Source: an uncultured Dehalococcoidaceae bacterium | GTDB taxonomy: Bacteria > Chloroflexota > Dehalococcoidia > Dehalococcoidales > RBG-16-60-22 | DNA length: 64,000 bases | Assembly (NCBI GenBank): GCA_964588605.1 | Contig: CAZPQB010000004.1 | Span: 1,341 to 65,340, forward strand | Direction: 5' to 3' | Part shown: positions 9,170 through 35,190 of the stretch, one piece after another | Numbering within the stretch: the first letter of the stretch is position 1 | Layout: the number at the start of each line of letters is the position of its first letter | The notes under the pieces: model-generated | Told to the model about the DNA's origin: nothing | Seen by the model: only the letters and a program-made list of their open reading frames with translations | Databases searched by the model: none | Program-made: the position numbers and the translations under genes

Positions 9170-9206
9170 GGGAGGGGGCGTTGCCCCCTCCCAAGCTGTT
9201 TTTTTA
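9170..9206 (+). terminator. Rho-independent terminator after the stomatin gene
   Basis: GGGAGGGGGC (9170-9179), GTT loop, GCCCCCTCCC (9183-9192), then a T7 run at 9199-9205. Confidence 0.8.
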
Positions 9207-9233
9207 CAAAATTTTTTAGTCCAGCAGGTAATG

Positions 9234-10013: not shown

Positions 10014-10056
10014 ATATGGACTATTTTAACATGTTAACGGGGGCTATTGAAGTAAA

Positions 10057-10080
10057 GGCGGGGAGAGTGAACTCCCCGCC
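10057..10080 (-). terminator. Hairpin terminator downstream of the AraC-family gene
   Basis: GGCGGGGAG (10057-10065) pairs with CTCCCCGCC (10072-10080). T-rich tracts flank it on both strands (TTTACTT on the minus strand). Confidence 0.55.
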
Positions 10081-10107
10081 TCTTTTCCACCTGAAAAAGC
10101 CGGTAAT

Positions 10108-14212: not shown

Positions 14213-15018
14213 GGCATAATCTGGCACTTTGGACAGAAGTAGGTGCCGCGGTTACGCACCACGATGCGCTTGATGGGGGTGCCGCAGGTGGGACAGTTCT
14301 TGCCGGTGCCGTGAGCGACCCTGAACTCGAAGTGGGCAGTGCCCGGATTGCCATCAGGGCGAAAGTAGCTTCGTACACTGGCTCCCTTATTGCCGATAGC
14401 CGACGATAACACCCGCCTGATAGCGCGGTGAAGTCGGTTAATCTCATCATTTGAGAGGCTTTCTGTCGGTCTTAAAGGGTGTATTCTCGCCTCGAAGAGG
14501 GCTTCATCGGCATACATGTTGCCGATGCCGGCAATCACCGACTGGTCCAGCAACACCGGCTTTATCGGCGCCGTTCGATTTCGCAGTCGCTGTGCCAGAA
14601 CTTGAGGCGTAAAGCTATCCTCCAGAGGCTCCGGGCCCAATTTGTCAGCTACAGCACGCTCGTCTCCAGCCAGCCACATCACCCCAAACTTGCGCGAGTC
14701 CGAGAAATGGAGTTCCGTACCATCATCAAGATGGAATATGGCCCTGGTAAATCTATCATCAGCCGGGTCTATCAGCAGCGAGCCGGTCATCTTCATGTGC
14801 ATTACCAGTATCTCGCCGCTGCTAAGGTGAAAGAAAAGGTACTTGCCGCGCCGGTTCAAGCCGGTTATTCTCTGTCCGACGACACGAGAATAAAATCCCT
14901 CAACAGAGGGCTGGCGGACTATCCCTTCCCAGAGCAAGGTAACGCTGGTGATTTCATGCCCGAGGATATAGGGTAGCAGTTCATTCTTAATGGTCTCGAC
15001 TTCGGGTAATTCAGGCAC
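14209..15018 (-). CDS. mutM: Formamidopyrimidine-DNA glycosylase
   Basis: 269 aa. N-terminal MPELPEVETI, an H2TH region, and a C-terminal zinc finger (CPTCGTPI...YFCPKCQ). Confidence 0.92.
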   Translation of the reverse strand: MPELPEVETIKNELLPYILGHEITSVTLLWEGIVRQPSVEGFYSRVVGQRITGLNRRGKYLFFHLSSGEILVMHMKMTGSLLIDPADDRFTRAIFHLDDGTELHFSDSRKFGVMWLAGDERAVADKLGPEPLEDSFTPQVLAQRLRNRTAPIKPVLLDQSVIAGIGNMYADEALFEARIHPLRPTESLSNDEINRLHRAIRRVLSSAIGNKGASVRSYFRPDGNPGTAHFEFRVAHGTGKNCPTCGTPIKRIVVRNRGTYFCPKCQIMP

Positions 15019-15021
15019 TGC

Positions 15022-17760
15022 CTACTTCATCTCTCCCCAGTTTTTACCTTCTTTGGTATCCACCTTGAGCGGGATAGCCAGTTCTACCGCTGCGGACATT
15101 ACGTCGGGAACGAGTTTACGCATGGTCGCCATTTCATCTTCAATCACCTCGAAGACAAGCTCATCATGCACCTGGAGCAGCATCTTACTCTTCAGTCGCC
15201 GCTTCTCCATCTCACGATACATATTTATCATCGCCACTTTGATAATATCCGCAGAAGTCCCCTGTACCGGCATATTGATAGCCATGCGTTCGGCAGCCTC
15301 CCTGACCTGGCGATTCGACGAGTTGATATCCGGGATAAAGCGCCTCCTGCCCAGCAATGTCTGCACATAACCATTCCGCCTCGCCTGTTCCCTGGTAGCA
15401 TCAAAATACTTCCTGACGCCGGGATATTTCTCAAAGTAAGCGGCGATAAACTGAGACGCTTCCTCGCGGGACAGCTCGGTGGCCTGCTCCAGTCCATAGT
15501 CGCTCATACCGTAGATAACACCGAAATTGACCGTCTTGGCGAACCGCCGCATATCGGGCGTTATCTGAGAAGGCTCGATACCATAAATCTGAGCAGCCGT
15601 GGCCGCATGGATATCCTCATCATTTCTGAAGGCACGCAGCAGTCCTTCATCCTGAGACAGGTGCGCCAGAGCCCGGAGGTCTATCTGCGAATAGTCCCCG
15701 GCGAGGAGGTAAGAGTTATCTGGAGCGACAAAAGCCTGCCTCACCTGCCCCCCCAGCTCTCCGCGAACGGGGATATTCTGCATATTGGGGTCGCTTGAGG
15801 AAAGCCGTCCGGTAGCCGTCCGGGTCTGGTTAAAGCTGGTATGAATCCGCCCGGTTTTCGGGTTTACCAGACCGGGTAAGGCGTCAATATAAGTCGACTT
15901 TATTTTAGTCAACTGGCGGTATTCCAAAATGTCGCCGGCGATGGCGAAATCCTTGCGGAATTCCTCCAGAACCGACGCCTCGGTTGAATATTTACTCTTG
16001 CCCCTACGCGTTGTCGGCAGATGCAGTTCATCGTAGAGGACACGGCCAAGCTGCTGGGGTGAGTTGATATTGAATTCATGACCGGCCTGGCTGTATATCC
16101 GCTCTTCCAGTCCGGCTACCTGCTCGCCGAGATGCTGTGACATATCGCCCAGCATCCCCGTGTCCAGGGCGACACCGTTCATCTCCATATCCAAGAGCAC
16201 CGGAACCAGCGGCATCTCGACTTCATTGAATAACTTCAACAGACCCTGCACGCCAAGCTCTTTCTGGAACAACCCCACCAGCCTCAACGTCATGTCGGCA
16301 TCGGCAGAGGCGTAGTCAGCCGACTGTTTTATGTCAACCTGAGACATCGAGAGCTGCTTGGCGCCTTTGCCGATAAGGGCACTGATAGGCGTCATCTCAA
16401 TAGCCAGCTTGCTGAAGGCCAGGGCTTTCAGGCCGAGGGACTTCTCCCCCAGAAGGTAGGCGGCAATCATGGTATCACAGGTCAGGTTATTTACAGCAAC
16501 ACCGTACTGCGCCAGCACCATCATATCGTACTTGCCGTTGTGAGCCAGCTTGGCTGTCTTACTATCCTCGAAAACGGGCTTGAGCCGGTTAATGACCTGT
16601 TCCAATGGCAACTGCGTCACCTCGTCCAGGATGACATGGCCAACCGGAATGTAATAAGCCGTGCCCGGCTCGACGGACAGGGATATGCCCACCAGCTTCG
16701 CCAGCATGGGGTTCAGGCCGGTGGTCTCGGTATCAAAGGCGAACGAACCGGCGGACGTCAGCTTACCGGCCAGTTCGTCGAGGGCTTCGGTGGTAGCTAC
16801 GATATGGTAGTCTCCCCGTGCCTGCTCAGCGGTGACTTCCACCGAAGCCGACTCCGCTTCCGTACCCGGCAATTTGGGCAGCAGACTGTAGAACTCAAGC
16901 TCGCGGAGGAAGTCGGCCACCTGCTTGCGGTCGAACTGGCTGACCCGGCAATCATCCATGTTCAGCTTGACCGGCGTTTGGGTGACGATGGTAGCCAGCT
17001 CCTTGCTCCGGTGAGCCAGGGCCTCGTTCTGCTTGAATATCTCCTGGAGGCGGGGCGGGGTAACATCGTCTAAATGAGCGTAGATTTCTTCCAGCGTGCC
17101 GAACCGCTGAATCAGCTTGACGGCGGTCTTCTCGCCGATGCCGGGGATACCGGGGATGTTGTCCGAGGCATCACCCACCATAGCCTTGAGGTCGGTGATG
17201 TGCTCCGGACTGACGCCATATTTCTCGCTTACCGCGGCCTCGTCGAAAAGCGTGGTATCGCTGAAGGTCTTACCGGCTTTAGGATAGAGCACCTTGACGC
17301 CGGGGGAGACAAGCTGCATGGTGTCGGCGTCGCCGGTGACGATAATGGTGTCAATGCCCTGCTGGCTTGCCTGCCGACTCAGCGTTCCCAGGACATCATC
17401 GGCTTCATAGTCATCAATCTCAAAGAGGGGGATACAGAAGGCTTCCACGAGCTGCTTGACGCGGTCTATCTGACTGACCAGCTCATCAGGGGTGGGCGGG
17501 CGCTGCGCTTTATACTGGTCAAACATCTTGTGGCGGAAGGTGGGGCCTTTCTTATCAAAGGCGATGGCGTAATGGGTGGGCTTGAGCTCGCTGAGCACCT
17601 TGAGGAGCATGAGGGCAAAGCCATAAACGGCACTGACGACCTCGCCGGTCCTGGATACAGTCAGCGGCGTCGCCTGCCGGTACCTGGTGGCGCCGAAGGC
17701 ATGGTAGGCGCGATGCACGATAGCATTGCCGTCAAAGAGGACTAAAAGAGGCTTATCCAT
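15022..17760 (-). CDS. polA: DNA polymerase I (5'-3' exonuclease, 3'-5' exonuclease and polymerase domains)
   Basis: 912 aa. Contains FAFDTETTGL (exonuclease I), DYSQIDLRALAH (motif A), RRFAKTVNFGVIYG (motif B) and QVHDELVFE (motif C). Confidence 0.97.
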   Translation of the reverse strand: MDKPLLVLFDGNAIVHRAYHAFGATRYRQATPLTVSRTGEVVSAVYGFALMLLKVLSELKPTHYAIAFDKKGPTFRHKMFDQYKAQRPPTPDELVSQIDRVKQLVEAFCIPLFEIDDYEADDVLGTLSRQASQQGIDTIIVTGDADTMQLVSPGVKVLYPKAGKTFSDTTLFDEAAVSEKYGVSPEHITDLKAMVGDASDNIPGIPGIGEKTAVKLIQRFGTLEEIYAHLDDVTPPRLQEIFKQNEALAHRSKELATIVTQTPVKLNMDDCRVSQFDRKQVADFLRELEFYSLLPKLPGTEAESASVEVTAEQARGDYHIVATTEALDELAGKLTSAGSFAFDTETTGLNPMLAKLVGISLSVEPGTAYYIPVGHVILDEVTQLPLEQVINRLKPVFEDSKTAKLAHNGKYDMMVLAQYGVAVNNLTCDTMIAAYLLGEKSLGLKALAFSKLAIEMTPISALIGKGAKQLSMSQVDIKQSADYASADADMTLRLVGLFQKELGVQGLLKLFNEVEMPLVPVLLDMEMNGVALDTGMLGDMSQHLGEQVAGLEERIYSQAGHEFNINSPQQLGRVLYDELHLPTTRRGKSKYSTEASVLEEFRKDFAIAGDILEYRQLTKIKSTYIDALPGLVNPKTGRIHTSFNQTRTATGRLSSSDPNMQNIPVRGELGGQVRQAFVAPDNSYLLAGDYSQIDLRALAHLSQDEGLLRAFRNDEDIHAATAAQIYGIEPSQITPDMRRFAKTVNFGVIYGMSDYGLEQATELSREEASQFIAAYFEKYPGVRKYFDATREQARRNGYVQTLLGRRRFIPDINSSNRQVREAAERMAINMPVQGTSADIIKVAMINMYREMEKRRLKSKMLLQVHDELVFEVIEDEMATMRKLVPDVMSAAVELAIPLKVDTKEGKNWGEMK

Positions 17761-18054: not shown

Positions 18055-18576
18055 ATGGCTGGTATCACTTTTCAGTTTGACCGAAGAAAAGCTATTGAAG
18101 CAATATTATATCTCGCAAAGAGAGTATCTGATTCGGATATTTACGGTATTTGTAAACTGCTATATTTGGTTGATAAGACTTGTCTTGAAAAATATGGGCG
18201 ATTTATATTCGGCGAAACATACTGTGCGATGAAGGAAGGCTCTACACCATCAAATGCGTATGATTTACTCAAAGAGGCTTCTCAAATACCCATAAATGAG
18301 CTACAAGTTGAAGGGAACCAAGTTATTGCTAAGCGTGATGCCGATTTAGAGTATTTAAGTGAATCAGATATTGAGTGTTTAGACCAAATTATAAATGTGT
18401 GGGGTAAAGTACCTAACTGGTCTAGAAGAGATGCTGCACATGATGATGCTTGGAAGAAAGCTTGGGGTAAGAGAGGGGGAAAGGGAAGTGTCAAAATACC
18501 AGTTGAAAGCATTGCGGAACTATTTGATGACTCGGAAGATTTAATCAATTTCTTATCTAACGCGGATACAGGGTAG
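18055..18576 (+). CDS. Panacea/DUF4065 (SocA/GepA-like) domain protein, candidate antitoxin
   Basis: 173 aa. AILYLAKR...ICKLLYLVDKTCLEKYGRFIFGETYCAMKEGSTPSNAYDLL fits the remembered Panacea-domain pattern (KLLY...G.p....Y.A...GP.P..Y). Confidence 0.6.
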   Translation: MAGITFQFDRRKAIEAILYLAKRVSDSDIYGICKLLYLVDKTCLEKYGRFIFGETYCAMKEGSTPSNAYDLLKEASQIPINELQVEGNQVIAKRDADLEYLSESDIECLDQIINVWGKVPNWSRRDAAHDDAWKKAWGKRGGKGSVKIPVESIAELFDDSEDLINFLSNADTG

Positions 18577-18581
18577 ATGCC

Positions 18582-18953
18582 ATGCCTGATATATGGCGTG
18601 TCTACCGTGTTAAGAATTGTCGTTATACTCATCCTCCCAAAGATAAATTGGTCATCATTGTATGTAGAGATACCGAGTGTATGGGCTTTCTAGTAAACTC
18701 TAAAATCCACCCATTTATTTTAAAAAGACCCTACCTATTTGCGTGTCAAGTTAAACTAAGTAATTCAGATTACGGCTTTTTATTTCGTGACTCATACTTG
18801 GATTGTGGCCGAATATACCCTTTTAAAGACGCTGAATTGGTTGTTGGTGTGGAACTCATTAATGATAAAACAAAGGCAGATATTAAAACGGCTGTAGCTA
18901 ACTCTAAGACAATCGAGAAAAAGTATAGAGACTTGATTCTTAGTAATCGTTGA
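18582..18953 (+). CDS. Hypothetical small protein, candidate toxin with a MazF/PemK-like sequence pattern
   Basis: 123 aa, starting 5 nt after the Panacea gene. PKDKLVIIVC / GFLVNSK / SYLDCGRIYPFKDAEL resembles the MazF layout (K.RP.vvv..., ...p.Ts, s.v....i.tid..rl). Similarity is weak and was judged by eye only. Confidence 0.4.
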   Translation: MPDIWRVYRVKNCRYTHPPKDKLVIIVCRDTECMGFLVNSKIHPFILKRPYLFACQVKLSNSDYGFLFRDSYLDCGRIYPFKDAELVVGVELINDKTKADIKTAVANSKTIEKKYRDLILSNR

Positions 18954-20174: not shown

Positions 20175-21605
20175 TTAATTGACCTGCTTTTCCTTACCCC
20201 GGACGTACCAGGGCAATTCCACGATTACTTTCGTACCCCCACCCGGCTTCGACTGTATTTCCAGACTGCCATTCAGGAGCCCGGCGCGCTCATACATACC
20301 CATAAGGCCCAGCCTGCCCTTACTTACCATATCCTCTATCCTTCCCGGCACATCAAATCCTCGCCCATTATCGGTCACGGTCATGGTGATACCATCGTCC
20401 CCACCCTCAACCTTAATCATAGCCTCCGAGGCACCAGCATGTCTCCTGATGTTGTTCAACGCTTCCTGAGCAATTCTGAACAGCACAATCTGCATCTCAG
20501 CCGGTAAGTCACGGTTGATACCCGTAACCTCAACCCGCGTCTGAATATTCTGTTCACTCTCCAAGTCTTCAGCTATCCATTCGAGAGCCGCCATCAGACC
20601 AAGGTCATCAATAACACGGGGCCTTAAACCCTGGGCGCAACGCCGTAACGCTTCCAGCGCCTCAACCGCCTGGCCACGCAGGTCCTCGAGACCGTTTTTC
20701 AGCGCTGATGCCCTGAGCCGCTGTCCCGAAGTCAGGTTATCAAGTTTTTGAATAAGAATGAGCATAAACGGAGAGACATCATCATGCAGGTCTCGAGCAA
20801 TACGCTTTCGCTCCTCCTCCTGCGCTCTGGTAATCTGCTGGATGTAGGAACGCACGTTCTCTTCCATCTGCTTCTCCCGGGTAACATCACGGGCGACGTG
20901 CTCAAAACCGCTTATCCTGCCACCAGCCATTACCGCATTAGTGGACATCTTCACCGTCCGTACCGTGCCGTCTTTAATATAAAACTGCTGCTCGTAGGGC
21001 TGTTCAAATCCTTCACCCCTGATAAGCTTGTCCCGTACTTCCCTGGCCAGAGTCAGAGAATCATCACTTAAAAATTTGGCAAGCTGCACGCCTTTCAGCT
21101 CTTCCCTACTGAATCCGGTCATTCTTTCGAATGCCTTGTTGCCGTCCACAAACAGGCCGTTCACATCCTGTACCCATATGGCATCGCTGGCATTCTCGAA
21201 CAGGTACTCATACTTCTGTTCCGTTACGCTCAATCCCCGTTCAGCCGCCTCCAACCTCAGAATCATTTGCCTGTACAGCTCATTCTCTTTTCTTTTACCC
21301 CCGAACCACAGGTTCACCAGAAGCCCCAGCACAACAACGACGCCGCACTCAAACATGGCTTCATATTTGTACTCGGATATCACAAAAACACGGGGCAACA
21401 TGATAGCCAGCGCCACGACCAGACTGACGATGCCCGCCCTTACCCCGAAAACCATGCCGGTATAAGTAACCGGTATCAGGAGAAGAATCCGCTCTATAGC
21501 ATGGCGGGTCAGGCCCAGAAACGAAAAAACAGATGGGGAGTCTATGAGCAATATCTGCTGCGGGTAATGCAGGACTATGCCAACGATAAATAGCCCCAGT
21601 ACCAC
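20175..21605 (-). CDS. Sensor histidine kinase (4-TM N-terminal module, PAS, HisKA_3, HATPase_c)
   Basis: 476 aa. H-box IARDLHDDVSPFML (NarX/DegS type), N-box EALNNIRRH, G-boxes DNGRGFD and GLMGMYERA. A PAS domain spans roughly residues 125-235. Confidence 0.87.
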   Translation of the reverse strand: MVLGLFIVGIVLHYPQQILLIDSPSVFSFLGLTRHAIERILLLIPVTYTGMVFGVRAGIVSLVVALAIMLPRVFVISEYKYEAMFECGVVVVLGLLVNLWFGGKRKENELYRQMILRLEAAERGLSVTEQKYEYLFENASDAIWVQDVNGLFVDGNKAFERMTGFSREELKGVQLAKFLSDDSLTLAREVRDKLIRGEGFEQPYEQQFYIKDGTVRTVKMSTNAVMAGGRISGFEHVARDVTREKQMEENVRSYIQQITRAQEEERKRIARDLHDDVSPFMLILIQKLDNLTSGQRLRASALKNGLEDLRGQAVEALEALRRCAQGLRPRVIDDLGLMAALEWIAEDLESEQNIQTRVEVTGINRDLPAEMQIVLFRIAQEALNNIRRHAGASEAMIKVEGGDDGITMTVTDNGRGFDVPGRIEDMVSKGRLGLMGMYERAGLLNGSLEIQSKPGGGTKVIVELPWYVRGKEKQVN

Positions 21606-21703: not shown

Positions 21704-22366
21704 CTACTGAATATCATCCAGGCTGATATATCCCTGCTTCAGTCCTTTGATGATGGCATCGGTACGGCTGCTGCAGCCCATTTTATTGAAGATATTACTC
21801 AGGTGTGCTTTAACGGTACGCAGACTAACCGAGAGCTTTTCGGACAGCTCTTTGTTGCTCATACCACGAGATGCCAGCCTTAATATCTCAATCTCACGCA
21901 GAGTAAGCTTGCTGCCGCTTTCAATTTCACCCCGTGCCGACTGTAAAGCGACCGAACGCTGGACCAGCTTACGTGTTACCTCCGGATCCAGTACAGATTC
22001 GCCGGAACGTACGGCACGGATGGCTCTAACGACTTCTTTCCCCGGGGCATTTTTCAGCAAGTAGCCACAGGCGCCGGCTTCCAGAAGACCAATAATATAC
22101 CGGATATCACTGTATGCCGTCAGTATTAATAGAGCCGTCGACGGGCTTGACTGCTTGATAAGCTTGGTGGCCTCCACTCCATTAAGCTTGGGCATCACGA
22201 TATCCATTATGACAATATCCGGCTTCAACTCACCCGCCAGCCTGACCGCTTCTTCGCCATCAGCCGCCTCACCAACCAGCTCAAAATCCTTCTCCTGCTC
22301 AAGTAGATTACGCATACCCGCCCTTAACATATCATGGTCGTCAGCAATCAGAATCCTAGTCTTCAT
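21704..22366 (-). CDS. NarL/LuxR-family response regulator
   Basis: 220 aa. REC domain (ILIADDH, IVIMDIVMP, LILTAY, YLLKN) plus a LuxR HTH (LTLREIEILRLASRGMSNKELSEKLSVSLRTVKAHLSNIFNKMG). Confidence 0.92.
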   Translation of the reverse strand: MKTRILIADDHDMLRAGMRNLLEQEKDFELVGEAADGEEAVRLAGELKPDIVIMDIVMPKLNGVEATKLIKQSSPSTALLILTAYSDIRYIIGLLEAGACGYLLKNAPGKEVVRAIRAVRSGESVLDPEVTRKLVQRSVALQSARGEIESGSKLTLREIEILRLASRGMSNKELSEKLSVSLRTVKAHLSNIFNKMGCSSRTDAIIKGLKQGYISLDDIQ

Positions 22367-22634: not shown

Positions 22635-22865
22635 GTGGAAAAGAGGAAAACAATACTTGCCGCCCTGACCAATGCCACCGGAGACAAACAGATGTCAGCC
22701 CAGGATATAAATAATAACACGGATATTACTGATGACTACTATACATTAACCAGCGAAGAGATAGCGGCGCTGGTTAAGGGCGATATCAAGAAAATAGAGG
22801 ACTGGGCACGCAAGCTGGACAGACACCACGCAATATTGCTTCTACACTTGCTAATCCAGAAATAA
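22635..22865 (+). CDS. Small protein carrying a truncated copy of the LT.EE..AL..GD..KIE.W..KLD helical module (start uncertain: GTG 22635 or ATG 22692)
   Basis: TLTSEEIAALVKGDIKKIEDWARKLDRHHAILLLHLLIQK aligns with the C-termini of the 33910..34248 product and of FdhA. A GGAGA RBS lies 7 nt before ATG 22692. Confidence 0.5.
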   Translation: MEKRKTILAALTNATGDKQMSAQDINNNTDITDDYYTLTSEEIAALVKGDIKKIEDWARKLDRHHAILLLHLLIQK

Positions 22866-22943
22866 CGGCAATGGAGAAATCGAGGTAACCATTGCCATAT
22901 AAAGGCAATTGAACGATGAAAGTGAAGAAAGGAGTTAAACAGA

Positions 22944-25346
22944 ATGGCAAGTGACAAGAAAATACTGATAGTTGATGACGAAAGCGTCATACGAGAGTCC
23001 ACCAGGGCCTGGTTAACGGACTGTGGATATCAGGTAAAAACCGCCGAAGACGGCGAACAGGCACTTAAAATGCTTAATGAAGATACCTATGGAGTCATTG
23101 TTCTGGATGTCCGCATGCCGGGTAAAGATGGTATATCCGTGCTGCAGGAGGCCAAGCAAGACCATCCCGACCTCAAATACATAATTATCAGTGGCTATCC
23201 GGCGGTGGATACGATGACCAAGGGGATAAGGCTGGGAGCCCTGGGGTTTCTGGTGAAACCATTCGACCCCGAGGAGCTGGAGAAGCTGGTCCGGCGGGCA
23301 TTGAACGGAGAACAGGTGGTATCAGAGAAAAAGACGGCTGATACCACGCGGACTGATGATGAGCTTCTTGCCCAGATTTCCGGCAAAGAAATCGCCTCCA
23401 TGATGGCGGAGAGTCGGGTCTTCAATCCTCCACAGAAATTTGCCGAAGCGGCGGCACTCAAGAGCCTTGAAGAATACAAAGCGCTCTACAACTGGTCTAT
23501 AAAAGACCCCGAGGGCTTCTGGAGCCAAGTCGCCGACCAACTGGACTGGTACAAGAAGTGGGACGAATTTGTGGAATATGACTTCACGACAACACCGGAG
23601 ATACGTTACTTCAAAGGCGGCAAGATAAACGTCAGCTACAACTGCCTGGACCGACATCTCAACACCTGGCGCAAGAATAAAGCCGCCATCATCTGGCAGG
23701 GAGAACCGGACGATGATACCGAGATATATACCTACCAGCAGCTTCATCACGAAGTATGCAAGTTTGCTAATGTGCTCAAGAAGATGGGCGTAAAGAAGGG
23801 CGACCCTGTTTCCATATACCTGCCGATGATTCCGGAGCTGGCTATAGCGATGCTTGCCTGCGTCCGCATCGGGGCTGTACACAGCGTGGTCTTCGGCGGT
23901 TTCAGCGCCGAAGCGCTACGTGACCGCATCCTGGACTGTAAATCGACGATACTCATTACTGCCGATGGCTACTACCGCAGCGGCCGGCACATCCAGAGCA
24001 AAGGTAATGTCGACGCCGCACTTACCGAATGTCCCCTGGTAAAAGACGTTATTGTAGTTAAAAGGCTGGGTATAGACATACCGATGCAGGAAGGCAGGGA
24101 CCACTGGTGGCATGAGGAGATAAATGCCGGGGACATCACGGCCGACTGCGAACCGGAGGAGATGGATGCCGATGCCCCCCTGTTCATCCTGTATACCAGC
24201 GGCAGCACCGGCAAGCCAAAGGGCGTTCTGCACACTCAGGCCGGTTATCTCCTCCATTGCTACCAGAGTATGAAATGGATATTCGATATTAAAGATGAAG
24301 ATACCTACTGGTGCACCGCCGATGTGGGCTGGGTTACCGGACACAGCTATATAGTCTATGGCCCTCTGGCCATCGGCGCTGCCAGTCTCATGTTCGAGAG
24401 CGTGCCAACCTACCCTGAGCCGGACAGGTTCTGGCAGATCGTGGAAAAATTCGGCGTAAACGTGTTCTATACAGCCCCCACCGTTATCAGGGCCCTGATG
24501 AGAGAAGGCGAGGATTGGCCCAACAAGCACGACCTCTCCAGCCTCAGACTTCTGGGCAGTGTTGGGGAGCCGATAAATCCCGAAGCCTGGATGTGGTTCC
24601 ACCGCGTCATCGGTAGGGAGAAATGCCCTATCGTAGATACGTGGTGGCAGACAGAGACCGGCGGCATTCTGATTACGCCGCTGCCCGGAGCTATTCCCAC
24701 CAAGCCTGGCTCGGCTACACTACCTTTCCCAGGCGTTGAGCCGGCAATATTAAAGGAAGATGGAACCGAAGCTGGCGTTAACGAAGGCGGCTGGCTCTGC
24801 ATTAAAAAGCCCTGGCCCGGAATAATGCGTACTATCTACGGTGACCCGCAAAGGTTCAAGGAAACGTATTTCAGCAAGTTCCCCGGTTACTACTGTACCG
24901 GAGACGGCGCCCGACGCGATGAGGACGGTTACTACTGGCTCATGGGACGAATTGACGACGTGATTAATGTCTCCGGACACCGCATCGGCACGGCCGAAGT
25001 GGAAAGCAGTCTGGTCTCACACGAAAAGGTAGCCGAGGCCGCCGTCGTCGGTATGCCACATCAGCTTAAAGGACAGGGCATCTACGCTTACGTTACCCTG
25101 AATGCGGGGGTGGAACCAGGGGAGGAACTGGAGAAAGAGCTGAAAACTCATGTCCGCAAGCAAATCGGTCCCATCGCCACACCGGATAAAATCCAGTTTG
25201 CCGATGGCTTACCCAAAACCAGGAGTGGAAAGATTATGCGCCGTATCCTGGTCAAGATTGCTGCCGGCAACAGCGGTGACTTTGGAGACACTTCCACCCT
25301 GGCCGACCCCTCAGTAGTTGATAACCTGATAAAGGGCAGGGTGTAG
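22944..25346 (+). CDS. acs: Response-regulator receiver domain fused to AMP-forming acetyl-CoA synthetase
   Basis: 800-aa single ORF. Residues 1-120 form a complete REC domain (DD11-12, D55 in VLDVRMPG, S83, K105 in LVKPF). Residues ~155-800 are Acs ([33 protein letters not shown]). AAGGAG RBS. Confidence 0.9.
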
Positions 25347-25422
25347 AAAAGAATAAAAGCCAGGTGGCTGGGGATAAAAGCCACTCCAGCCACCGGCAAC
25401 TACCTTTGTAAAGGAGCTTTCT

Positions 25423-25998
25423 GTGGCACAGGTCTTAGTGAAGGATGAATCAACATGGGCTAACCCGGCGGCTCTGGGACTGGCCGGTTTTGGACTTAAC
25501 ACCGTACTGCTGCAAATACATAATATCGGCTGGATTGAAAGCACCCTGCCGATTATCTACGGGTTCTTCTGGGGAGGCATCGCCCAGATAATCGCCGGCC
25601 TGATCGATGCCCGCCGGGGGGATACCTCCGGCCTTACCGCGTTTACCTCTTACGGACTGTTCTGGCTGGGGCTGAGCTTCAGTTTCCTCCTGCAATGGCT
25701 CGGACTGGTCACTCTGGATGGCCCCGGAATAGCCTGGCTATTCGTATGCTGGGGGATATTTACCGGCTACATGACAATCGGCACTCTTAAGATATCAGCC
25801 GTTCATATCTTTGTATTCGCCACGCTAACGGTACTCTTCTTCCTGCTGGCCGCCCACTTCTTCGGCGCTCTGCCGGCCATCGTACCCGGGGTAGAAGGGA
25901 TCTTATGCGGTGCGGCGGCGGCCTACGGCTCGGCGGCTGTAGTCGTTAACTCCAAGTACGGACGTGAAGTGCTCCCGATGGGGACGCTATCCAAATAG
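25423..25998 (+). CDS. satP: Acetate channel/transporter of the GPR1/FUN34/YaaH (AceTr) family
   Basis: 191 aa, six hydrophobic helices. N-terminal NPAALGLAGFGL matches the family NPAPLGL signature. GTG start after an AAGGAG RBS. Confidence 0.8.
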   Translation: MAQVLVKDESTWANPAALGLAGFGLNTVLLQIHNIGWIESTLPIIYGFFWGGIAQIIAGLIDARRGDTSGLTAFTSYGLFWLGLSFSFLLQWLGLVTLDGPGIAWLFVCWGIFTGYMTIGTLKISAVHIFVFATLTVLFFLLAAHFFGALPAIVPGVEGILCGAAAAYGSAAVVVNSKYGREVLPMGTLSK

Positions 25999-26024: not shown

Positions 26025-27263
26025 TCAGGCCGACATTTGAGATGAATCCGTCTGAGCGCTTTCCTTAGCTACCGGCAGATAAACAGAGAACGTGCTCCCC
26101 TTACCCATCTCGCTCTCCACATCAATCCTGCCGCCATGCCGCTCAATAATCCCATGGGATACGGCCAGGCCCAGGCCAACTCCCTTCACCTCTTCTTTAG
26201 TTGTGAAAAAGGGAGTAAAAAGCCTGTCCATATTCTCAGGAGATATGCCGCAGCCATCATCCTGAAAGCTTATCTTCAACCAGCCATCCTCATGCGAGCT
26301 ATTAATTGTCAGCCTGCCACCTTCATTCATCGACTGTACCGCGTTTACCACCAGATTAACAAATACCTGCAAAATCTGGTTGAAATCAGCCACAACCAAC
26401 GGCAACGATGGCTCATCCTCCCTGATTATTTCAATACTTTTCATCTTAGCCTGGTGTCCAACCAGAGACATCACCTTGTCGATAGCTCTGCTTACCGTTA
26501 CCGGCCTCAGCAACGGCGGCGACTGCCGTGCGAAATCAAGGAGGCCACGAATTATCTCGGAGCAGTAGTTGACGGCCGACTCTATCTCCGACAGATTTGC
26601 CAGCGCTTCATCTTTGTTAAAAGAGTCACTACCCAGCCTCTTGGCCAGCAATTTGGTATAGACCAGGACGCCTCCCAGCGGATTGTTGAGCTCATGGGCT
26701 ACTGACGCCGATAGCTGACCCAGGGCACTGAGCTTGGCTGACTGTATAAGCTGCTGCTGAGTGTTCTTCAGGCGTTCTATGTAGCTATTCAACTCCTCAT
26801 TAAGGGATAGTATCTCGTCATAGGTACCTGCCTGATGTTCATAATAGTTTAGTAATGTAGCCCAAAGGCTGCTGACGAGGAAGGCAAAAAGGGCAAAGAT
26901 AAGGGACCTTGTAAGTGAAATCAAATCATAGGCGAAAAGAAAGGCATGAGGCAACCATATACACAGAAAAATCAGTCCGCTGATTACCACCCCGCGCAGA
27001 CGATAGACAATAGCGGCATATATCAACGGATAGAAGAAAAGAATAACATAGATATCATGGAAATCCGAAAGAACGCCGTAATAGATATACGTAAAGACGG
27101 CAAAAAGGCCGGCGATTATCCAGATATGGGGACTGCGAACGCTGGTCGCTTTAGCACGCAGCAGCCAGGAACTGGCTTTTAGTCTGGAGTCCCGATTCCT
27201 GTGGACGTTACCTCTACCCGAATTTCCAGATTTGCTTCCGCCATTCATCATCTGGGTTGACAT
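26025..27263 (-). CDS. Membrane sensor histidine kinase (4-TM module, HisKA, HATPase_c) with no adjacent cognate DNA-binding regulator
   Basis: 412 aa. H-box SVAHELNNPLGG, N-box LVVNAVQS, G-boxes DDGCGI and GVGLGLAVSHGI. Lies 38 nt downstream of fdhA on the same strand. Confidence 0.87.
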   Translation of the reverse strand: MSTQMMNGGSKSGNSGRGNVHRNRDSRLKASSWLLRAKATSVRSPHIWIIAGLFAVFTYIYYGVLSDFHDIYVILFFYPLIYAAIVYRLRGVVISGLIFLCIWLPHAFLFAYDLISLTRSLIFALFAFLVSSLWATLLNYYEHQAGTYDEILSLNEELNSYIERLKNTQQQLIQSAKLSALGQLSASVAHELNNPLGGVLVYTKLLAKRLGSDSFNKDEALANLSEIESAVNYCSEIIRGLLDFARQSPPLLRPVTVSRAIDKVMSLVGHQAKMKSIEIIREDEPSLPLVVADFNQILQVFVNLVVNAVQSMNEGGRLTINSSHEDGWLKISFQDDGCGISPENMDRLFTPFFTTKEEVKGVGLGLAVSHGIIERHGGRIDVESEMGKGSTFSVYLPVAKESAQTDSSQMSA

Positions 27264-27301: not shown

Positions 27302-30265
27302 CTACCATTTTTCCTGGGCCAGTCTGGCAACAAGCCACTTCTTCAGGCGTTCATCCAGTTTGCCAACCCATGACTCGATTTTCCGCAAATCGCCGCTGGC
27401 AATGGCCACTTTCTCTTCAGCCGTTAAGTCATATTCTTTCAACGCCTCAGCGGGGTTCTCGGCAAGACGCGTAAAAAAGGCGTTGTCCTGAGTAGCCCTG
27501 TCCAGTACCGCCAGTACCGCCTTGACGGCAGAGACCTTGAACTCCGGAATTTTGGCTACCGGGTCCAGCGCTGCATTGGTCAGCATGTTGGCCGGCGACT
27601 CACGCCAGTGGAAAGCCATGAAGGCAAGCCCGGGGGAGGTCTCATCGGTAATGCGGGCCGGGGTTTCTATCTTGCCCCTCTCCGAAGCTATGGACACGAG
27701 GTCGCCATCTACGATACCCAGTTTCAACGCATCATCAGGGTGGATATCAACGGAACCGTTGGGATAGAGGTCCTGTAACACTCTGGTCCTCCGGCTCATG
27801 CTGCCCGTATGCCAGTGCTCCAGCACCCGCCCGGTGGTAAGAATTAGTGGATAGTCGGCAGAAACAGATTCCGCCGGAGGCTTGTATTCAACGGCATGGA
27901 ACTTACCCAGACCGCGGGTGAACTTGCCTACATGAAGAGTCGGCGTGCCGGGGTGGGTCCGGTCATAGCAGGGCCACTGCAGTCCGTAATCCTCCAGCCG
28001 GTCGAAGTGCATACCGCCGTAAATAGGGGTAAGCGCCGTCATTTCCTCGTTTATCTCCTCGGCGTTCTGGTAATTAAACGGATAACCCATCTTATCAGCC
28101 AGCATAGAAATAATCTGCCAGTCGGGTTTGGCTTCACCGGGGGAGTCGATAGCTTTCCTTATTCTCTGCACCCGCCTCTCGGTGCTGGTGAAAGTGCCCT
28201 CCTTTTCGGCGAAGGTAGCCGCCGGCAGAATAACATCGGCGAGAACAGCCGTCTCGGTAGGGAATATGTCCTGGACCACCAGGAATTCCAGCGTCTGTAT
28301 AGCCCGCTTGGTATGAAGCGCATAGGGTTCGCTCATTATGGGATTTTCGCCGACCACGAACAAGGCCTTTATCTGGCCTTGAGAGGCCGCATCTATCATT
28401 TCGGTAACGGGCAGCCCCGGTTTATCCTTGATAGTGCAGTCCCAGGCTGTCTCGAATTTCTGCCTGGCCTCCGGATTGGCTACCTGCTGATAGCCAGGGA
28501 AGACATTGGGCAGTGCCCCCATATCACACGCTCCCTGAACGTTGTTCTGACCCCTGAGCGGGCTGAAGCCGGTGCCCTCCCGGCCGATATTACCCGTCAA
28601 CATCAGCAGGTTGGCAAGACTTTTAACGTTGTCCGTACCCGTGGTGTGCTGGGTTATACCCATGCCGTAGAGAACAGCCGCCTTCTCGGCACCGGCGAAG
28701 AGGCGCGCGGCTCTTACAATACTGGCTTCAGAAACGCCAGTTATCTCATGTACCATCTTAGGGGTGTACTGCTTGACGGTCTCCGCCAGCTCCTCAAAAC
28801 CTTCGGTACGTTCCTCAATAAATTTCTGGTCATGCAGTCCCTCTTGGAGAATCACATTCATCATAGCGTTAATCAGGGCAACGTCCGTTCCCGGTTTGTG
28901 GCGCAGATGAACAGTAGACAGTTTGGCTAACTGGATGGCGCGGGGGTCAGCTACTATCATCTTGGCATTCCCTGATTTTACGCGCTGGCGTATTATCCGT
29001 CCGATGATGGGATGACACTCAGTGGTATTGGAGCCAATGATAAACAGGACATCAGCCTTGGCAAAATCGGCAATGGAGTTGCTCATGGCACCATCACCGA
29101 AGGCAGCAGCCGCAGCGACTACTGTCGAGGCATGGCAGAGCCGGGCGCAGTGGTCAATGTTATTGGTGCCCAATACAGCCCGGGCGAATTTCTGCACCAG
29201 GTAGTTTTCCTCGTTGGTAAACTTGGCCGAGCTCAGTACACCAAGGCTATCCGGACCGTGTTCCGTTTTGATTCTGGAGAGATTGTCCGCCACCAGTTCA
29301 AGGGCTTCATCCCAGCTGGCTTCGCGGAAGATATCTTTGAAATTGCCATTCACCTCGACATCCTTGCTCCAGCCTTCTTTCCTTATCAGCGGCCGGGTAA
29401 GCCTGTCGGGGTGATTAACGAAGTCAAAGCCAAACCTCCCCTTGACACAGAGGCCGCCCCTGTTGACGGGACTCTCGGTGTCGCCACGCACGCTGACTAT
29501 CTCATTTCCGCGAATCCCCAGATATATGGAGCAGCCTACGCCACAGTAAGGACAGGTTGTCTTAACCTCACGGGTCGGCTGGCGGGTGCTTTTAGCTACA
29601 AGGGCTCCGGTAGGACACCGTGCCAGACATTCGCCGCAGGACTCACATATGGATTTAAGAATGGGTTTATCGCCGAAGGTGCTGACTCTGGCCGAGTTGC
29701 CCCTGAAGGCAAGGTCAATAGCCCCGACACCGGCAATTTCGTGGCAGGCACGGACACACTTGCCGCAGAGAATACACTTATTAAGCTCACGGGTAAAGGC
29801 GGGATGGCTGTCATCAACAGGAATCAGCTCCTGGCTTTTCCGCATCCTGTCAAAATGCTCCTGTTCAATACCCAGGTACCGTGCTATCGTCTGTATGTCG
29901 CACTGCTGGTTTTTGGCGCAGGTGAGGCAATCACCGTGGTGGTTAGCCATGATAAGCTCCATGGTAATGCGCCGGGACTGAGTCACCATGGTCGACTCGG
30001 TATGCACCACCATGCCATCGGTGGCGGGCGTGGTACATGAGGTGGGCAGACCACGCATTCCCTCAACCTCAACGACACAGAGGCAGCAAGCCCCGTAGGG
30101 CTTGAGGTCAGGGTCATGGCAGAGGGTAGGGATATAAATGCCGGCACTCTGTGCTGCCTCCAGTATGGTAGCGCCTTTGGGCACCTCTATCTTCCTACCG
30201 TCAATAGTCAAGGTTACAGTACCCAGCTTTTGTTCTTCCCTGGTGGTTGTAATTATCGTAGCCAT
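27302..30265 (-). CDS. fdhA: Formate dehydrogenase catalytic subunit (NuoG-like Fe-S N-terminus + Mo/W-bisPGD domain, Cys type) with a ~75-aa C-terminal helical module
   Basis: 987 aa. N-terminal 2Fe-2S (CHDPDLKPYGACCLCVVEV), HHGDCLTCAKNQQC, two 4Fe-4S motifs, a MopB core and the active site HCARLCHAST (Cys, no in-frame TGA). The C-terminus ...LKEYDLTAEEKVAIASGDLRKIESWVGKLDERLKKWLVARLAQEKW is an extra module. Confidence 0.9.
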   Translation of the reverse strand: MATIITTTREEQKLGTVTLTIDGRKIEVPKGATILEAAQSAGIYIPTLCHDPDLKPYGACCLCVVEVEGMRGLPTSCTTPATDGMVVHTESTMVTQSRRITMELIMANHHGDCLTCAKNQQCDIQTIARYLGIEQEHFDRMRKSQELIPVDDSHPAFTRELNKCILCGKCVRACHEIAGVGAIDLAFRGNSARVSTFGDKPILKSICESCGECLARCPTGALVAKSTRQPTREVKTTCPYCGVGCSIYLGIRGNEIVSVRGDTESPVNRGGLCVKGRFGFDFVNHPDRLTRPLIRKEGWSKDVEVNGNFKDIFREASWDEALELVADNLSRIKTEHGPDSLGVLSSAKFTNEENYLVQKFARAVLGTNNIDHCARLCHASTVVAAAAAFGDGAMSNSIADFAKADVLFIIGSNTTECHPIIGRIIRQRVKSGNAKMIVADPRAIQLAKLSTVHLRHKPGTDVALINAMMNVILQEGLHDQKFIEERTEGFEELAETVKQYTPKMVHEITGVSEASIVRAARLFAGAEKAAVLYGMGITQHTTGTDNVKSLANLLMLTGNIGREGTGFSPLRGQNNVQGACDMGALPNVFPGYQQVANPEARQKFETAWDCTIKDKPGLPVTEMIDAASQGQIKALFVVGENPIMSEPYALHTKRAIQTLEFLVVQDIFPTETAVLADVILPAATFAEKEGTFTSTERRVQRIRKAIDSPGEAKPDWQIISMLADKMGYPFNYQNAEEINEEMTALTPIYGGMHFDRLEDYGLQWPCYDRTHPGTPTLHVGKFTRGLGKFHAVEYKPPAESVSADYPLILTTGRVLEHWHTGSMSRRTRVLQDLYPNGSVDIHPDDALKLGIVDGDLVSIASERGKIETPARITDETSPGLAFMAFHWRESPANMLTNAALDPVAKIPEFKVSAVKAVLAVLDRATQDNAFFTRLAENPAEALKEYDLTAEEKVAIASGDLRKIESWVGKLDERLKKWLVARLAQEKW

Positions 30266-30324
30266 GTTATCCTCCGTCGGAAAGGTAATATCCAGTAAAA
30301 TTCATCGTCACGTTTAATTTCTTT

Positions 30325-33300
30325 TTAGTCTTCCTCAAGGTCACACCTCAGGCAACGCCCCGCCTCCTCGGTCGCCGCTTCTACCGTGTAGCCAAGCTCG
30401 ACGACATTAAAGTCCTTAAGTCGCCGGTCAACAGCCAGCACCGGCATTTCGGGTCGCCTTCTTTCTTCATCTTCTTCCACTGCCGAAGATGCCGTTATAT
30501 CTTCAGGGGGAGCCAATTTTTCGTCAATCAGGCCCTGGCCACCGAGGTATTTATCTATAGAAATAGCGGCCTGCCGTCCGGCGGCAATCGCCTCGATTAC
30601 CGAAGCCGGCCCACTGACGACATCCCCACCCGCAAATACGCCTTCTACGTCAGTGGCGAGTGTATAGGGGTCAGCATCTATGGTGCTCCGTCCATTGGTT
30701 TTTATCCCCATCTGGTCAGGAATCTCGGGCCTCTGACCGACAGCCGCCACGATAACGTCAAACTCTTCTTCAAATTCGCTGCCAGGGATAGGCTCCGGCC
30801 GTCGGCGGCCACTATCATCAATATCCCCCAGCTTCATCCGGACACAATTCATCTTTAGATGCCCATTCTCTCGCCATATTTTGCTGGGGTTGGCAAGGAA
30901 CTCAATGCCGATACCTTCCTCCAGTGCTTCCTTTATCTCCTCATCAGCGGCCGGCATCTCGTTCCGGGTGCGCCGGTAGTAAATGGTCACCTTTCTGGCG
31001 CCGAGCCGCAGGGCCGTCCGGGAGGCATCAATCGCGGCATTGCCTCCACCGACAACCGCTACCCTCTTACCAAGCTTCACTTGCTTGCCCAGACTGACAT
31101 CACGGAGCAGCGAGACGCAGTCCATTACCCCCGGTGTATCCTCTCCGTCAACACGCATGGGTGTGCCGGCATGGGCACCGAGGGCGAGAAATACAGCGTC
31201 GTACCCCTGCTCACGGAGCGACGCCACGGAATCCATCCTGATATTTGTCTTTATCTCCACGCCGACCTGCCTGATGGCATCTATCTCAGCATCAAGTAGA
31301 TCCCCGGGCAAACGGTATCTGGGGATGCCGACCCTCATCATGCCGCCTGCCTCCGGGAGGGCTTCAAACACGGTAATGGCATGACCGCCGAGTTTGGCTA
31401 GGTAATAGGCCGCCGTCAGACCGGCCGGACCTGACCCCACGACAGCTACCCGCTTTCCGGAGGGTGACGCTATGACAGGTTCGACCGCACTCTTGCCGCC
31501 ATAGTCAGCGGCAAAGCGTTTTAACGCCCTGATGGCAATGGACTCATCCAGCTGACCCCGGCGGCACTTGGATTCACAGGGGTGGATACATACATACCCG
31601 CAGACAGACGGGAAGGGGATTTTTTCTTTGATGACAGCCAGGGCTTCATCATAATTTCCTTCGGCAATCAGGCGGATATAGCGCGGCACGTCAACGCCAG
31701 CCGGGCAGGTATGACTGCAGGGTGCCCTGACCAGCCCCTTACATTCGGCTGCGGGGCAGTGCAGTTTAATAATATGAGATTCGTATTCATCACGGAAGTA
31801 GCGGATGGTAGAGAGCACGGGGTTGGGCGCTGTCTGGCCCAGCCCGCAGCGCGACCCGTTTTTAACCGCTTCGCTCAACTCAATCAGCAGGTCGATATCA
31901 TCAGGCCGCCCTCTGCCATGGGTAATGTCCTCCAAAATGTCCAGCATCTGTTTGGTGCCCCAGCGGCACTGGATGCACTTACCGCAGGACTCAAACTGCG
32001 TAAAGGCAAGGAAAAATCTGGCCATATCCACCATGCAGGTATCCTCGTCCATCACCACCATACCACCCGACCCCATGATAGAACCGGCGCTGGCCAGAGA
32101 TTCATAATCAACCGGGGAATTGAGAAAGCTGGCTGGCAAACACCCCCCGGAAGGACCACCGGTCTGTACCGCCTTAAAGCGCTTACCGTTGGGAATACCC
32201 CCGCCGATATCGAAAATTATCTCGCTCAGGGTGGTACCCATGGGCACTTCAACGAGGCCGCTATTGGCTATTTTACCAGTAAGGGCGAATACGGCCGTGC
32301 CTTTGCTTTTTTCTGTGCCGATAGCTGCGTACCAGTCTGCCCCTTCATTGATAATTACGGGAACGGTCGCCAGGGTCTTTACATTATTGATATTGGTAGG
32401 TTTTCCCCATAGTCCTGACTGCGCCGGGAAGGGCGGACGGGGACGAGGCATGCCCCGACTGCCTTCGATTGAAGCCATCAGGGCTGTCTCCTCACCACAG
32501 ACGAAGGCACCGGCACCTTCCTTAACATGTAATCTGAAATTGAAACCGGAGCCCAGGATATTCTCACCCAGAAAGCCACGTTCCTCAGCCTGCTGTATGG
32601 CGATGCGCAGGCGCTTGATAGCCAGAGGATACTCCGCCCGGCAGTATATATAGCCTTCACTGGCGCCAATGGCAAAAGCCGCGATAATCATTCCCTCGAT
32701 GACAGTATTCGGGTCACCTTCCATGGTGCTCCGGTCCATAAACGCCCCCGGGTCACCCTCGTCGGCGTTACATATCATATACTTTTCTTTGCCCGGTTCA
32801 CGGCGGCATAGTTCCCACTTTTGCGCTGTGGAGAAACCTGCCCCACCACGTCCCCGCAACCCGGAACGCCTTATCTCATCTATGACTTGCTCCGGCGACA
32901 TCTCGCCGAGCACTTTCTTTAATGCCTCATAGCCGCCGGCGGCTATGTAATCTTCTATCCTCTCTGGATTGATATGCCCGCAATTACGCAGGATGACGCG
33001 CTTCTGCTTCTGGTAGAATTTGATATCCTTGTACTTCGCTATGGTCTCATCAGTGACAGGGTCGCGATAGAAGAGACGCTCTACCGGTTGGCCATTCATC
33101 AGATGCGATTGAACAATCTCGACCGCATCTTCTACCTTGACATGCGTATAGAAAGTGCCCTCAGGTTCAACCACCACAATAGGGCCCTGCTGGCAGAACC
33201 CGTGGCAACCGGTGAAATCAACCTTAACATTATTCATTCCGGCCTTCTTTACCTCATCTTCAATTTCCAGCCGAATCTGCTCTGACCTTGACGAGGTACA

Positions 33301-33889: not shown

Positions 33890-33909
33890 TTCAGACCTCA
33901 CTTTATTAT

Positions 33910-34465: not shown

Positions 34466-34503
34466 GGTACGAGGAGATGCCATTGAGGCAGAAAAGGAAC
34501 AAT

Positions 34504-35166: not shown

Positions 35167-35190
35167 TGCCTGACAAAGAGGATAATATCT

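Follow-up and report, generated by a model that had tools for sequence, protein, structure and literature searches.

A receiver domain joined to the front of an acetyl-CoA synthetase in an uncultured Dehalococcoidales bacterium, with a sensor kinase gene adjoining

The window analysed here is a stretch of 64,000 nucleotides on contig CAZPQB010000004.1 of an uncultured Dehalococcoidales bacterium. One of its genes, REC-Acs, joins a receiver (REC) domain to the front of the acetate-activating enzyme Acs (AMP-forming acetyl-CoA synthetase), and a gene encoding a sensor kinase, HK412, adjoins it. The fusion is almost certainly a real and conserved protein family, and all computational tests run agree with REC-Acs being a genuine response regulator with an AMP-forming Acs output. 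From this architecture we infer that phosphorylation gates Acs activity, and a phosphorylation-controlled Acs served by HK412 is considered reasonably probable. REC-Acs would then belong, as response regulator, to a dedicated two-component system that controls the activity of an enzyme and not transcription.

The fusion as a protein family

The first-pass annotation of this DNA had described REC-Acs as a single uninterrupted open reading frame (ORF) of 800 aa, and the gene is indeed unbroken (Table 1). A good Shine-Dalgarno sequence (GAAAGGAG, 22927–22934) precedes the ATG start codon (22944) by 9 nt. A search of 5.8 billion protein clusters (90% identity clusters), in which the best 120 matches were considered, identified at least 85 clusters of 790–807 aa that carry the fusion with the same four Pfam domains and exhibit 65–97% identity to the query. 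The remaining 35 of the best 120 are unfused Acs proteins of 648–690 aa (mostly approximately 671 aa) that are 77–82% identical to it. The fusion clusters stem from four data sources (JGI, ENA, NCBI and Logan assemblies). Among contigs representing one genome per species, the full fusion is found in approximately 27 metagenome-assembled genomes (MAGs) labelled Dehalococcoidales, "Dehalococcoidaceae", Dehalococcoidia or Chloroflexi. The carriers among the matches listed all belong to the Dehalococcoidales or Chloroflexota. The public names of the fusion clusters are only "acetate--CoA ligase" or "acetyl-CoA synthetase".

The worry raised in the first pass that a stop or frameshift might separate the two domains is settled by this recurrence in independent assemblies. 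The same frame in at least 85 clusters and approximately 27 MAGs excludes an assembly, frameshift or merge artefact with no need for raw reads. The ribosome-binding site stands at the start of REC, and none is present before the Acs part of the fusion.

An exhaustive search by phmmer, with residues 1–240 as query and 1.84 billion representatives as target, found the Acs part only in fragments of the same family among the best 150 matches; because multi-REC proteins dominate these 150, the result is no proof of absence below approximately 133 bits. Two candidate fusions from other lineages were rejected. The tblastn span in L061 (Magnetobacteriaceae) is explained by a separate REC-GAF gene located 0.5 kb upstream of an ordinary acs, and the REC match in L056, from an archaeon, lies approximately 650 nt downstream of acs, is 29% identical and is not N-terminal. 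The first-pass annotation had asked how rare the architecture is: none was found outside the lineage, but the fusion is common within it and the class of REC-metabolic enzyme fusions has already been described (PMC5847659).

The receiver domain

The first-pass call depended on the N-terminal 120 aa matching REC models. Residues 7–116 match Response_reg (PF00072) far above its cutoff, with 101.9 bits (E 2.9e-29, cutoff 30.2) over profile positions 1–110 of 111. The query REC contains D11, D12, D55, S83, F102, K105 and P106, and every REC and Acs residue named in the first pass is present in the sequence. The phospho-acceptor D55 is encoded by the GAT codon at 23106–23108. Across the 85 fused homologues, position 11 is Asp in 76 and Glu in six, D12 is kept in 81, D55 in 80 and K105 in 82, while T/S83, the aromatic switch F/Y102 and P106 are found in all 85. 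The five members without D55 (P0063, P0069, P0103, P0110, P0120) have usually lost the acidic pair too.

AlphaFold2 (AF2) modelling with the family alignment predicts a (beta-alpha)5 fold for REC with a predicted local distance difference test score (pLDDT) of 74–93. The strands are placed at residues 6–10, 30–34, 51–55, 78–83 and 101–104 and the helices at 14–26, 37–46, 63–73, 88–96 and 109–121. The alignment of the 85 fused and 35 unfused relatives gave REC (residues 1–120) a mean identity to the query of 59%, and the median ratio of nonsynonymous to synonymous substitution rates (dN/dS) is 0.12, which points to purifying selection on REC. By sequence, REC has every feature expected of a CheY-like receiver and is predicted to be phosphorylatable.

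The closest NCBIfam receivers are those of NtrX (98 bits), NtrC (94 bits) and AtoC (92 bits), and the nearest solved structures are also receivers of the NtrC family. Membership of the NtrC activator family itself was rejected because the AAA+ and HTH domains are missing: the NtrC/AtoC sigma-54 activator models match only the receiver part (92–98 bits against cutoffs of 558–714), and the remainder of the protein is Acs. Outside Acs, the nearest relatives of REC are REC-REC proteins, such as one from a deltaproteobacterial MAG (L120) with RECs 51–54% identical to the query REC and an adjoining kinase with an HK412-like core.

The tether and the Acs body

The first-pass annotation had placed a linker of approximately 35 aa between REC and Acs. 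A variable tether of 18 aa (residues 121–138) stands; about half of the supposed linker is instead a conserved Acs N-terminal motif that unfused relatives carry as well. The tether shows 17% mean identity to the query, ranges from 10 to 21 aa across the family and has a median dN/dS of 0.65. The motif at residues 139–160, "..ILGQIS..I.SMM.E.RVF", has 59% mean identity and a median dN/dS of 0.10, with I150, S152, E156, R158 and F160 invariant or nearly so. Unfused Dehalococcoidales Acs proteins share it, and their starts align to query positions 125–133. Within the AF2 model (mean pLDDT 78.6, predicted template modelling score 0.73), REC and the Acs body are confident and residues 123–155 fall below a pLDDT of 50, so the two are modelled as flexibly tethered, with no rigid signalling helix between them.

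A REC-less isoform starting at Met153/154, as had been proposed, finds no support because the Met pair lies inside the conserved "SMM" and no Shine-Dalgarno sequence precedes it. The unfused homologues begin 20–28 residues before the equivalent of Met153/154, and this candidate start was rejected.

The Acs body (residues 161–800) is the most conserved segment, with 82% mean identity to the query and a median dN/dS of 0.065. It scores far above the cutoff of the acetate--CoA ligase equivalog TIGR02188 (1015.7 bits, cutoff 725), which bears out the full-length Acs read in the first pass, and of NF001208 (1059 bits, cutoff 657). The competing ligase models PrpE (603 bits, cutoff 955) and acetoacetate (377 bits, cutoff 639) remain below theirs. 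Pfam places ACAS_N at residues 178–234, AMP-binding at 239–631 and AMP-binding_C at 685–763. Residues 166–797 align end to end with residues 13–643 of Salmonella enterica Acs (56% identity, 826 bits), and no solved structure matching the Acs part contains a receiver.

Besides WWQTETGG (567–574) and PKTRSGK (757–763), the protein contains a further Acs motif at 417–427, and this motif, WWQTETGG and K763 are invariant in the family. Lys763 (codon 25230–25232), the counterpart of S. enterica K609, is taken to be the catalytic and acetylation-site lysine. By an alignment offset of 153–154 residues, T465, V540 and W568 correspond to T311, V386 and W414 of S. enterica Acs, which we take from the established literature to be acyl-pocket residues; all three are invariant. 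Because the catalytic motifs and K763 are invariant, the output domain is predicted to be an active Acs.

HK412, the candidate cognate kinase

Residues 47–140 of HK412 form a hydrophobic block of approximately four helices, and domain models identified neither a PAS nor a periplasmic domain in the protein. The residues of the H-box, N-box and G1 are invariant among the HK412 orthologues. An orthologue with 47–73% identity is encoded near 28 of the 29 fusions with an intact REC, beside none of the three D55-less fusions (L085, L086, L087) and beside none of the 15 unfused Dehalococcoidales loci. One unfused locus, L032, keeps the frame of fdhA-like gene, response regulator gene RR220, small ORF76, acs and the acetate channel gene satP (Table 1) without HK412. 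Three others (L027, L036, L042) have kept a second kinase, HK476, and have no HK412.

The HK412 gene is not always in the same place. Both the window and L199, whose outer context is unrelated, have it after acs-satP in convergent orientation, and in L005 and L010–L012 it directly follows acs, again convergent. In L006–L009, L014, L015, L019 and others, it lies upstream of HK476/RR220 and downstream of the fdhA-like gene. The possibility that HK412 belongs to the formate dehydrogenase (FDH)-like operon and not to acs was rejected on two counts: L199 has the kinase after acs-satP and no FDH operon in the vicinity, and HK412 is missing from unfused loci that share the fdhA-like synteny. In the window, HK412 starts 38 nt past the stop codon of the fdhA-like gene and may be co-transcribed with the FDH-like operon in this genome.

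Mirror-tree analysis, a comparison of pairwise distances over 23 loci, gave a correlation of 0.88 between REC and the dimerisation and histidine phosphotransfer (DHp) domain of HK412. Controlling for Acs leaves a partial correlation of 0.74, and the reverse partial correlation is -0.14. At the 13 loci with both kinases, REC correlates at 0.91 with the DHp of HK412 versus 0.75 with that of HK476. This co-variation backs the pairing in a supportive, not decisive, manner. The classes of the two predicted partners also match, with HK412 an AtoS/ZraS-type HisKA kinase and REC an NtrC/AtoC-type receiver.

Two further observations concern the sensor part of HK412. In an unclassified high-GC MAG (L121, 8019–10975), an unfused acs (654 aa) is directly followed by a kinase gene, cut off by the end of the contig, whose product is 40% identical to HK412 from residue 33 onwards, with the membrane sensor block included. 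As this kinase directly follows an unfused acs, a link of HK412-type sensors to acetate metabolism may extend outside the fusion lineage. HK476 and HK412 show weak similarity in their membrane N-termini (27% identity, pairwise E 4e-5), and the two may share a sensor module and possibly a signal.

Evolution of the fusion

A rooted neighbour-joining tree of the Acs part, built with 12 outgroups and 30 bootstraps, places the fused clades at the base. Most unfused proteins fall in one nested cluster that is sister to the fused clade of the query, and P0069, a member with a degenerate REC, falls within the unfused cluster. Fitch parsimony on this tree requires 4–6 state changes over the 30 bootstraps. 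The pattern suggests a single early fusion followed by decay and loss of REC in a sublineage, with the kinase lost alongside, a history that is tentative because the branches of the tree are short.

Proposed mechanism and alternatives

In the proposed mechanism, HK412, with its NtrB/AtoS-type HisKA core, would autophosphorylate on a membrane-associated signal and hand the phosphoryl group to Asp55 of the NtrC-type receiver. As the tether is short, variable and disordered and not a rigid helix, phosphorylation would most likely alter an intramolecular or inter-subunit contact between REC and Acs, in the manner of CheB. The altered contact would free or block the Acs catalytic cycle, for example at the rotation of the C-terminal domain, and REC-mediated dimerisation would be an alternative route to altered Acs activity. 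The outcome would be rapid gating of the conversion of acetate to acetyl-CoA alongside the co-encoded SatP channel. The phosphotransfer from HK412, the effect on catalysis and the membrane-associated signal are all inferred from sequence. There is a slight lean towards phosphorylation activating Acs, and the viable REC-less descendants fit REC as either an auto-inhibitor or a dispensable activator.

Several points weigh against this mechanism. The tethered-domain step rests on analogy because AF2 yields no confident REC-Acs interface. As the unfused descendants have a working Acs without REC, the domain is a modulator and not essential to the enzyme. L002/L003, the sole exception to the co-occurrence, has no kinase within 8 kb but an intact D55. 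Neither the co-occurrence counts nor the mirror-tree figures are independent of phylogeny, and similar rates in REC and the HK412 DHp may inflate the mirror-tree correlation. The dN/dS values are rough because dS (1.1–1.6) is near saturation, while the contrast between segments is clear. Finally, genome scans seeded with HK412 were uninformative on exclusivity: the single-sequence pattern was too specific and missed known orthologues, and the alignment-based scan picked generic H-box patterns.

Phosphorylation could instead govern the assembly or location of Acs and not its catalysis directly, which is regarded as unlikely. Dimerisation of phosphorylated REC would change the oligomeric state, or phosphorylated REC would dock to HK412 or SatP at the membrane and so bring Acs to the acetate channel for metabolic channelling. 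Receivers of the NtrC family, such as those of NtrC1 and DctD, work through dimer rearrangement, most loci keep acs and satP together, HK412 resides in the membrane as an integral protein and the flexible tether would let REC reach its partners. However, four fused loci with HK412 (L005, L010–L012) have no adjacent satP, and the proposal overlaps with control of catalysis in that oligomerisation could itself alter activity.

Another proposal, also rather unlikely, takes REC as a phosphate sink or branch point, with the real output of HK412 being another regulator (RR220 or a stand-alone REC). The REC on Acs would compete for the phosphoryl group, possibly to an extent that depends on ligands bound to Acs, and Acs would thereby report on acetate flux and not be controlled by the pathway. 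HK476 is missing from four fused loci (L001, L016, L033, L041) that have HK412 and RR220, so HK412 could serve RR220 there, and L021 and L198 hold extra stand-alone RECs of the same subfamily beside REC-acs, as is typical of branched pathways. Yet HisKA (NtrB-type) kinases seldom pair with NarL-type receivers such as that of RR220, whose canonical partner is HK476, and RR220 is kept without HK412 at unfused loci. Covalent attachment to one enzyme in more than 85 lineages would also be needless for a mere sink.

It is improbable that REC is charged mainly by acetyl phosphate, which would make it a sensor of Pta-AckA overflow that prevents a futile cycle of acetate excretion and re-uptake. Many receivers do autophosphorylate from acetyl phosphate, and L002/L003 retain D55 with no nearby kinase. 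Acetyl phosphate also already feeds Acs control via AcuA (PMC11255334). This source would leave the tight co-occurrence and co-variation of HK412 with an intact REC unexplained, and annotation of most genes in the window revealed no pta or ackA.

That REC is vestigial or purely structural, or that the fusion is a gene-calling or assembly artefact, is very improbable and largely refuted: five of the 85 members have lost D55 and/or the acidic pair, and a nested lineage has apparently lost REC entirely, so REC is dispensable there, but its dN/dS of 0.12, catalytic residues conserved in approximately 94% of members, the co-occurring kinase, the same frame in four data sources and the position of the ribosome-binding site all argue otherwise.

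Neighbouring genes and related loci

Table 1. Positions of REC-Acs, its segments and associated features. Positions refer to the window unless a locus is named.
Feature	Position	Strand	Evidence or remarks
REC-Acs fusion gene, 800 aa	22944..25346	+	Single unbroken ORF, Pfam/NCBIfam domains, homologue family, AF2 model
Receiver (REC) domain, aa 1–122	22944..23309	+	PF00072
Variable flexible tether (predicted), aa 123–138	23310..23357	+	Low identity, high dN/dS, pLDDT <50
Conserved lineage-specific Acs N-terminal motif, aa 139–160, including Met153/154	23358..23423	+	Unfused Acs carry the motif too
AMP-forming Acs body, aa 161–800	23424..25343	+	TIGR02188
AceTr/SatP acetate channel or transporter	25423..25998	+	PF01184; NF038013 164.5 bits, cutoff 50
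HK412, membrane-embedded HisKA/HATPase_c kinase, candidate partner	26025..27263	-	Pfam/NCBIfam; closest AtoS, ZraS
ORF76, small conserved ORF directly before acs	22635..22865	+	40–56% identity upstream of fused and unfused acs
RR220, NarL/GerE-type response regulator, divergent from acs	21704..22366	-	Response_reg + GerE
HK476, PAS-HisKA_3 histidine kinase	20175..21605	-	Pfam/NCBIfam domains
Approximately 70-aa domain, setting 1: ORF76 before fused and unfused acs	22635–22865	+	
Approximately 70-aa domain, setting 2: 112-aa ORF ahead of NuoE-like/FDH-like operon	33910–34248	-	
Approximately 70-aa domain, setting 3: C-terminal tail of 987-aa FdhA-like protein and orthologues	27302–30265	-	
Approximately 70-aa domain, setting 4: C-terminus of REC-REC protein beside HK412-like kinase	L120 7782–8777		Deltaproteobacterial MAG

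The gene following acs encodes SatP, and the acetate channel that the first pass had placed in the operon is confirmed by NF038013 (Table 1). The linkage is conserved, with satP following acs in most loci, fused and unfused Dehalococcoidales alike. The 76 nt that separate acs from satP contain a perfect inverted repeat of 9 bp (GGTGGCTGG, 14 nt, CCAGCCACC) at 25363–25394. It has no T-run behind it and was not flagged by the terminator scan; it could form an mRNA-stabilising or attenuating hairpin. No Rfam elements were found around acs at E up to 0.1, and the counts of promoter-like and terminator-like sequences around acs equal those of shuffled controls.

The small ORF76 directly before acs is probably part of the same transcription unit. 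RR220 resembles MadR and MctR below their cutoffs and adjoins acs in fused and unfused loci, and HK476 is kept at many fused and some unfused loci. HisKA_3 kinases of the HK476 type are canonical partners of NarL-type regulators. Because these genes stand beside acs whether or not REC is fused to it, HK476/RR220 is read as probably a separate transcriptional layer over ORF76-acs-satP.

A domain of approximately 70 aa with the pattern LT.EE..A...GD.KKIE.W.GKLD....W...RL.QEKW recurs in four settings (Table 1) and has no Pfam match. Its sole family match is a weak one to the NHLP clan (20 bits, cutoff 40). ORF76 and the FdhA tail are 36% identical over this domain (E 1e-11).

The FDH-like operon next to HK412 (27302–33940, reverse strand) is predicted to be NAD(P)-linked. 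Its products are a 195-aa NuoE-like 2Fe-2S protein, a 1019-aa protein in which NuoF-like and GltD-like (Pyr_redox_2/Fer4_20) parts are fused, and an FdhA-like molybdopterin subunit of 987 aa whose N-terminus is NuoG-like.

A second REC-enzyme fusion of the same lineage is encoded by L198 (9696–12023, also 9302–9682 and 14095–15276). This 775-aa protein consists of REC followed by Fer4_22, FAD_binding_6, NAD_binding_1 and DHODB_Fe-S_bind domains and directly precedes the genes for the small and large subunits of a NiFe hydrogenase. Beside it, the locus encodes one HK412 orthologue (59% identical) and, as a separate protein, another REC of the same subfamily, an arrangement that suggests one kinase may serve several enzyme-borne receivers. 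The L021 locus (5222–10949) encodes, in order, a membrane kinase HK405, a soluble PAS kinase HK379, REC-Acs (802 aa) and a stand-alone REC of 166 aa with 50% identity to the fused one. The C-terminal halves of HK405 and HK379 are nearly identical.

A wider role for HK412 is a tentative and somewhat doubtful extension of the phosphorylation-controlled Acs. At the centre of a post-translational "metabolic regulon" of slow-growing Dehalococcoidales, the kinase would phosphorylate the enzyme-fused receivers of REC-Acs (carbon assimilation) and of the L198 REC-Fe-S/FAD/NAD oxidoreductase (electron-donor metabolism). Since its gene adjoins FDH-like or hydrogenase operons, HK412 could match acetate activation to H2/formate availability or membrane energisation without a transcriptional step. 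The ORF76-like domain, which recurs in small leader ORFs, FdhA tails and REC-REC proteins, could serve for docking within this network.

Two-component genes are dense across the window. A further NarL-type regulator is encoded with a GAF-PAS-HisKA_3 kinase at 34477–37149 (forward strand), and a 504-aa ORF at 41122–42636 (forward strand) has a HisKA-like stretch only at its C-terminus and no ATPase domain. At 18055–18953 (forward strand), a SocA/Panacea-domain antitoxin-like gene (173 aa) is followed after 5 nt by a 123-aa ORF with no family match, and the two are probably a toxin-antitoxin pair. The 1049-aa protein encoded at 37259–40408 (reverse strand), with nine CARDB repeats and matches to DUF11 and Big_3_5, is probably located at the cell surface.

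Comparison with known systems

The best mechanistic analogy for REC-Acs is CheB, in which an N-terminal receiver is joined through a flexible linker to a self-sufficient methylesterase that is active without REC. In both proteins a receiver appears to be tethered flexibly to a self-sufficient enzyme. Unlike that of CheB, the output of REC-Acs is not a signalling enzyme but a 640-aa two-domain ligase of the ANL superfamily that belongs to central carbon metabolism. Its partner is a candidate membrane HisKA kinase and not CheA, and its REC is of the NtrC type.

Response regulators with enzymatic outputs include PleD and WspR (REC-GGDEF), RpfG (REC-HD-GYP) and REC-PP2C proteins, and REC-Acs is of the same general kind in having an enzyme as its output. 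The characterised proteins of this type make or degrade second messengers or target signalling proteins, unlike REC-Acs. If the proposed mechanism is true, REC-Acs would provide a clean two-component example in which flux through an enzyme of central metabolism is the output, in place of a second messenger or gene expression. Galperin et al. (2018) described several instances of REC fused to "standard metabolic enzymes" with a narrow phyletic distribution, which put metabolic activity under environmental control (PMC5847659), and REC-Acs fits this description. No description of the REC-Acs architecture was found in the literature searched; the census tables of Galperin (2006/2010) may list it. 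As public annotation pipelines give these proteins no other name than "acetate--CoA ligase", readers of annotations cannot see the signalling domain.

Acs is classically controlled through lysine acetylation by Pat/CobB in Salmonella, AcuA/AcuC in Bacillus and the cAMP-dependent PatA in mycobacteria, which makes it one of the most thoroughly studied cases of metabolism controlled after translation. The published work on this control includes a structure of a Chloroflexota AcsA, which has no receiver (PMC11255334). The target enzyme and the logic of rapid gating of acetate activation would be the same in REC-Acs. The acetylation systems differ in that a separate modifying enzyme acts on the C-terminal domain, whereas in REC-Acs the signalling domain is built in at the N-terminus and the input would be Asp phosphorylation. 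Acetylation control could exist alongside the REC system, as the target lysine K763 is invariant; the parts of the window that were annotated revealed neither an acetyltransferase gene nor a sirtuin gene. If true, the REC system would be a second and mechanistically distinct route to gating acetate activation besides lysine acetylation. The carriers of the fusion are uncultured Dehalococcoidales of anoxic sediments and aquifers. Cultivated Dehalococcoides suggest by analogy that these carriers may draw much of their carbon from acetate, and the switch could therefore bear on the coupling of carbon uptake to energy supply.

Two-component systems dedicated to the use of acetate or short-chain acids are a further likeness, with CrbS/CrbR in Vibrio and Pseudomonas and AtoS/AtoC for short-chain fatty acids in Escherichia coli. 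CrbS/CrbR exerts transcriptional two-component control of acs (PMC5436829). Among the named systems, HK412 and REC are closest to AtoS and AtoC, below the family cutoffs. The regulators CrbR and AtoC bind DNA, whereas the receiver of REC-Acs has no DNA-binding or AAA+ domain and is fused to the enzyme itself.

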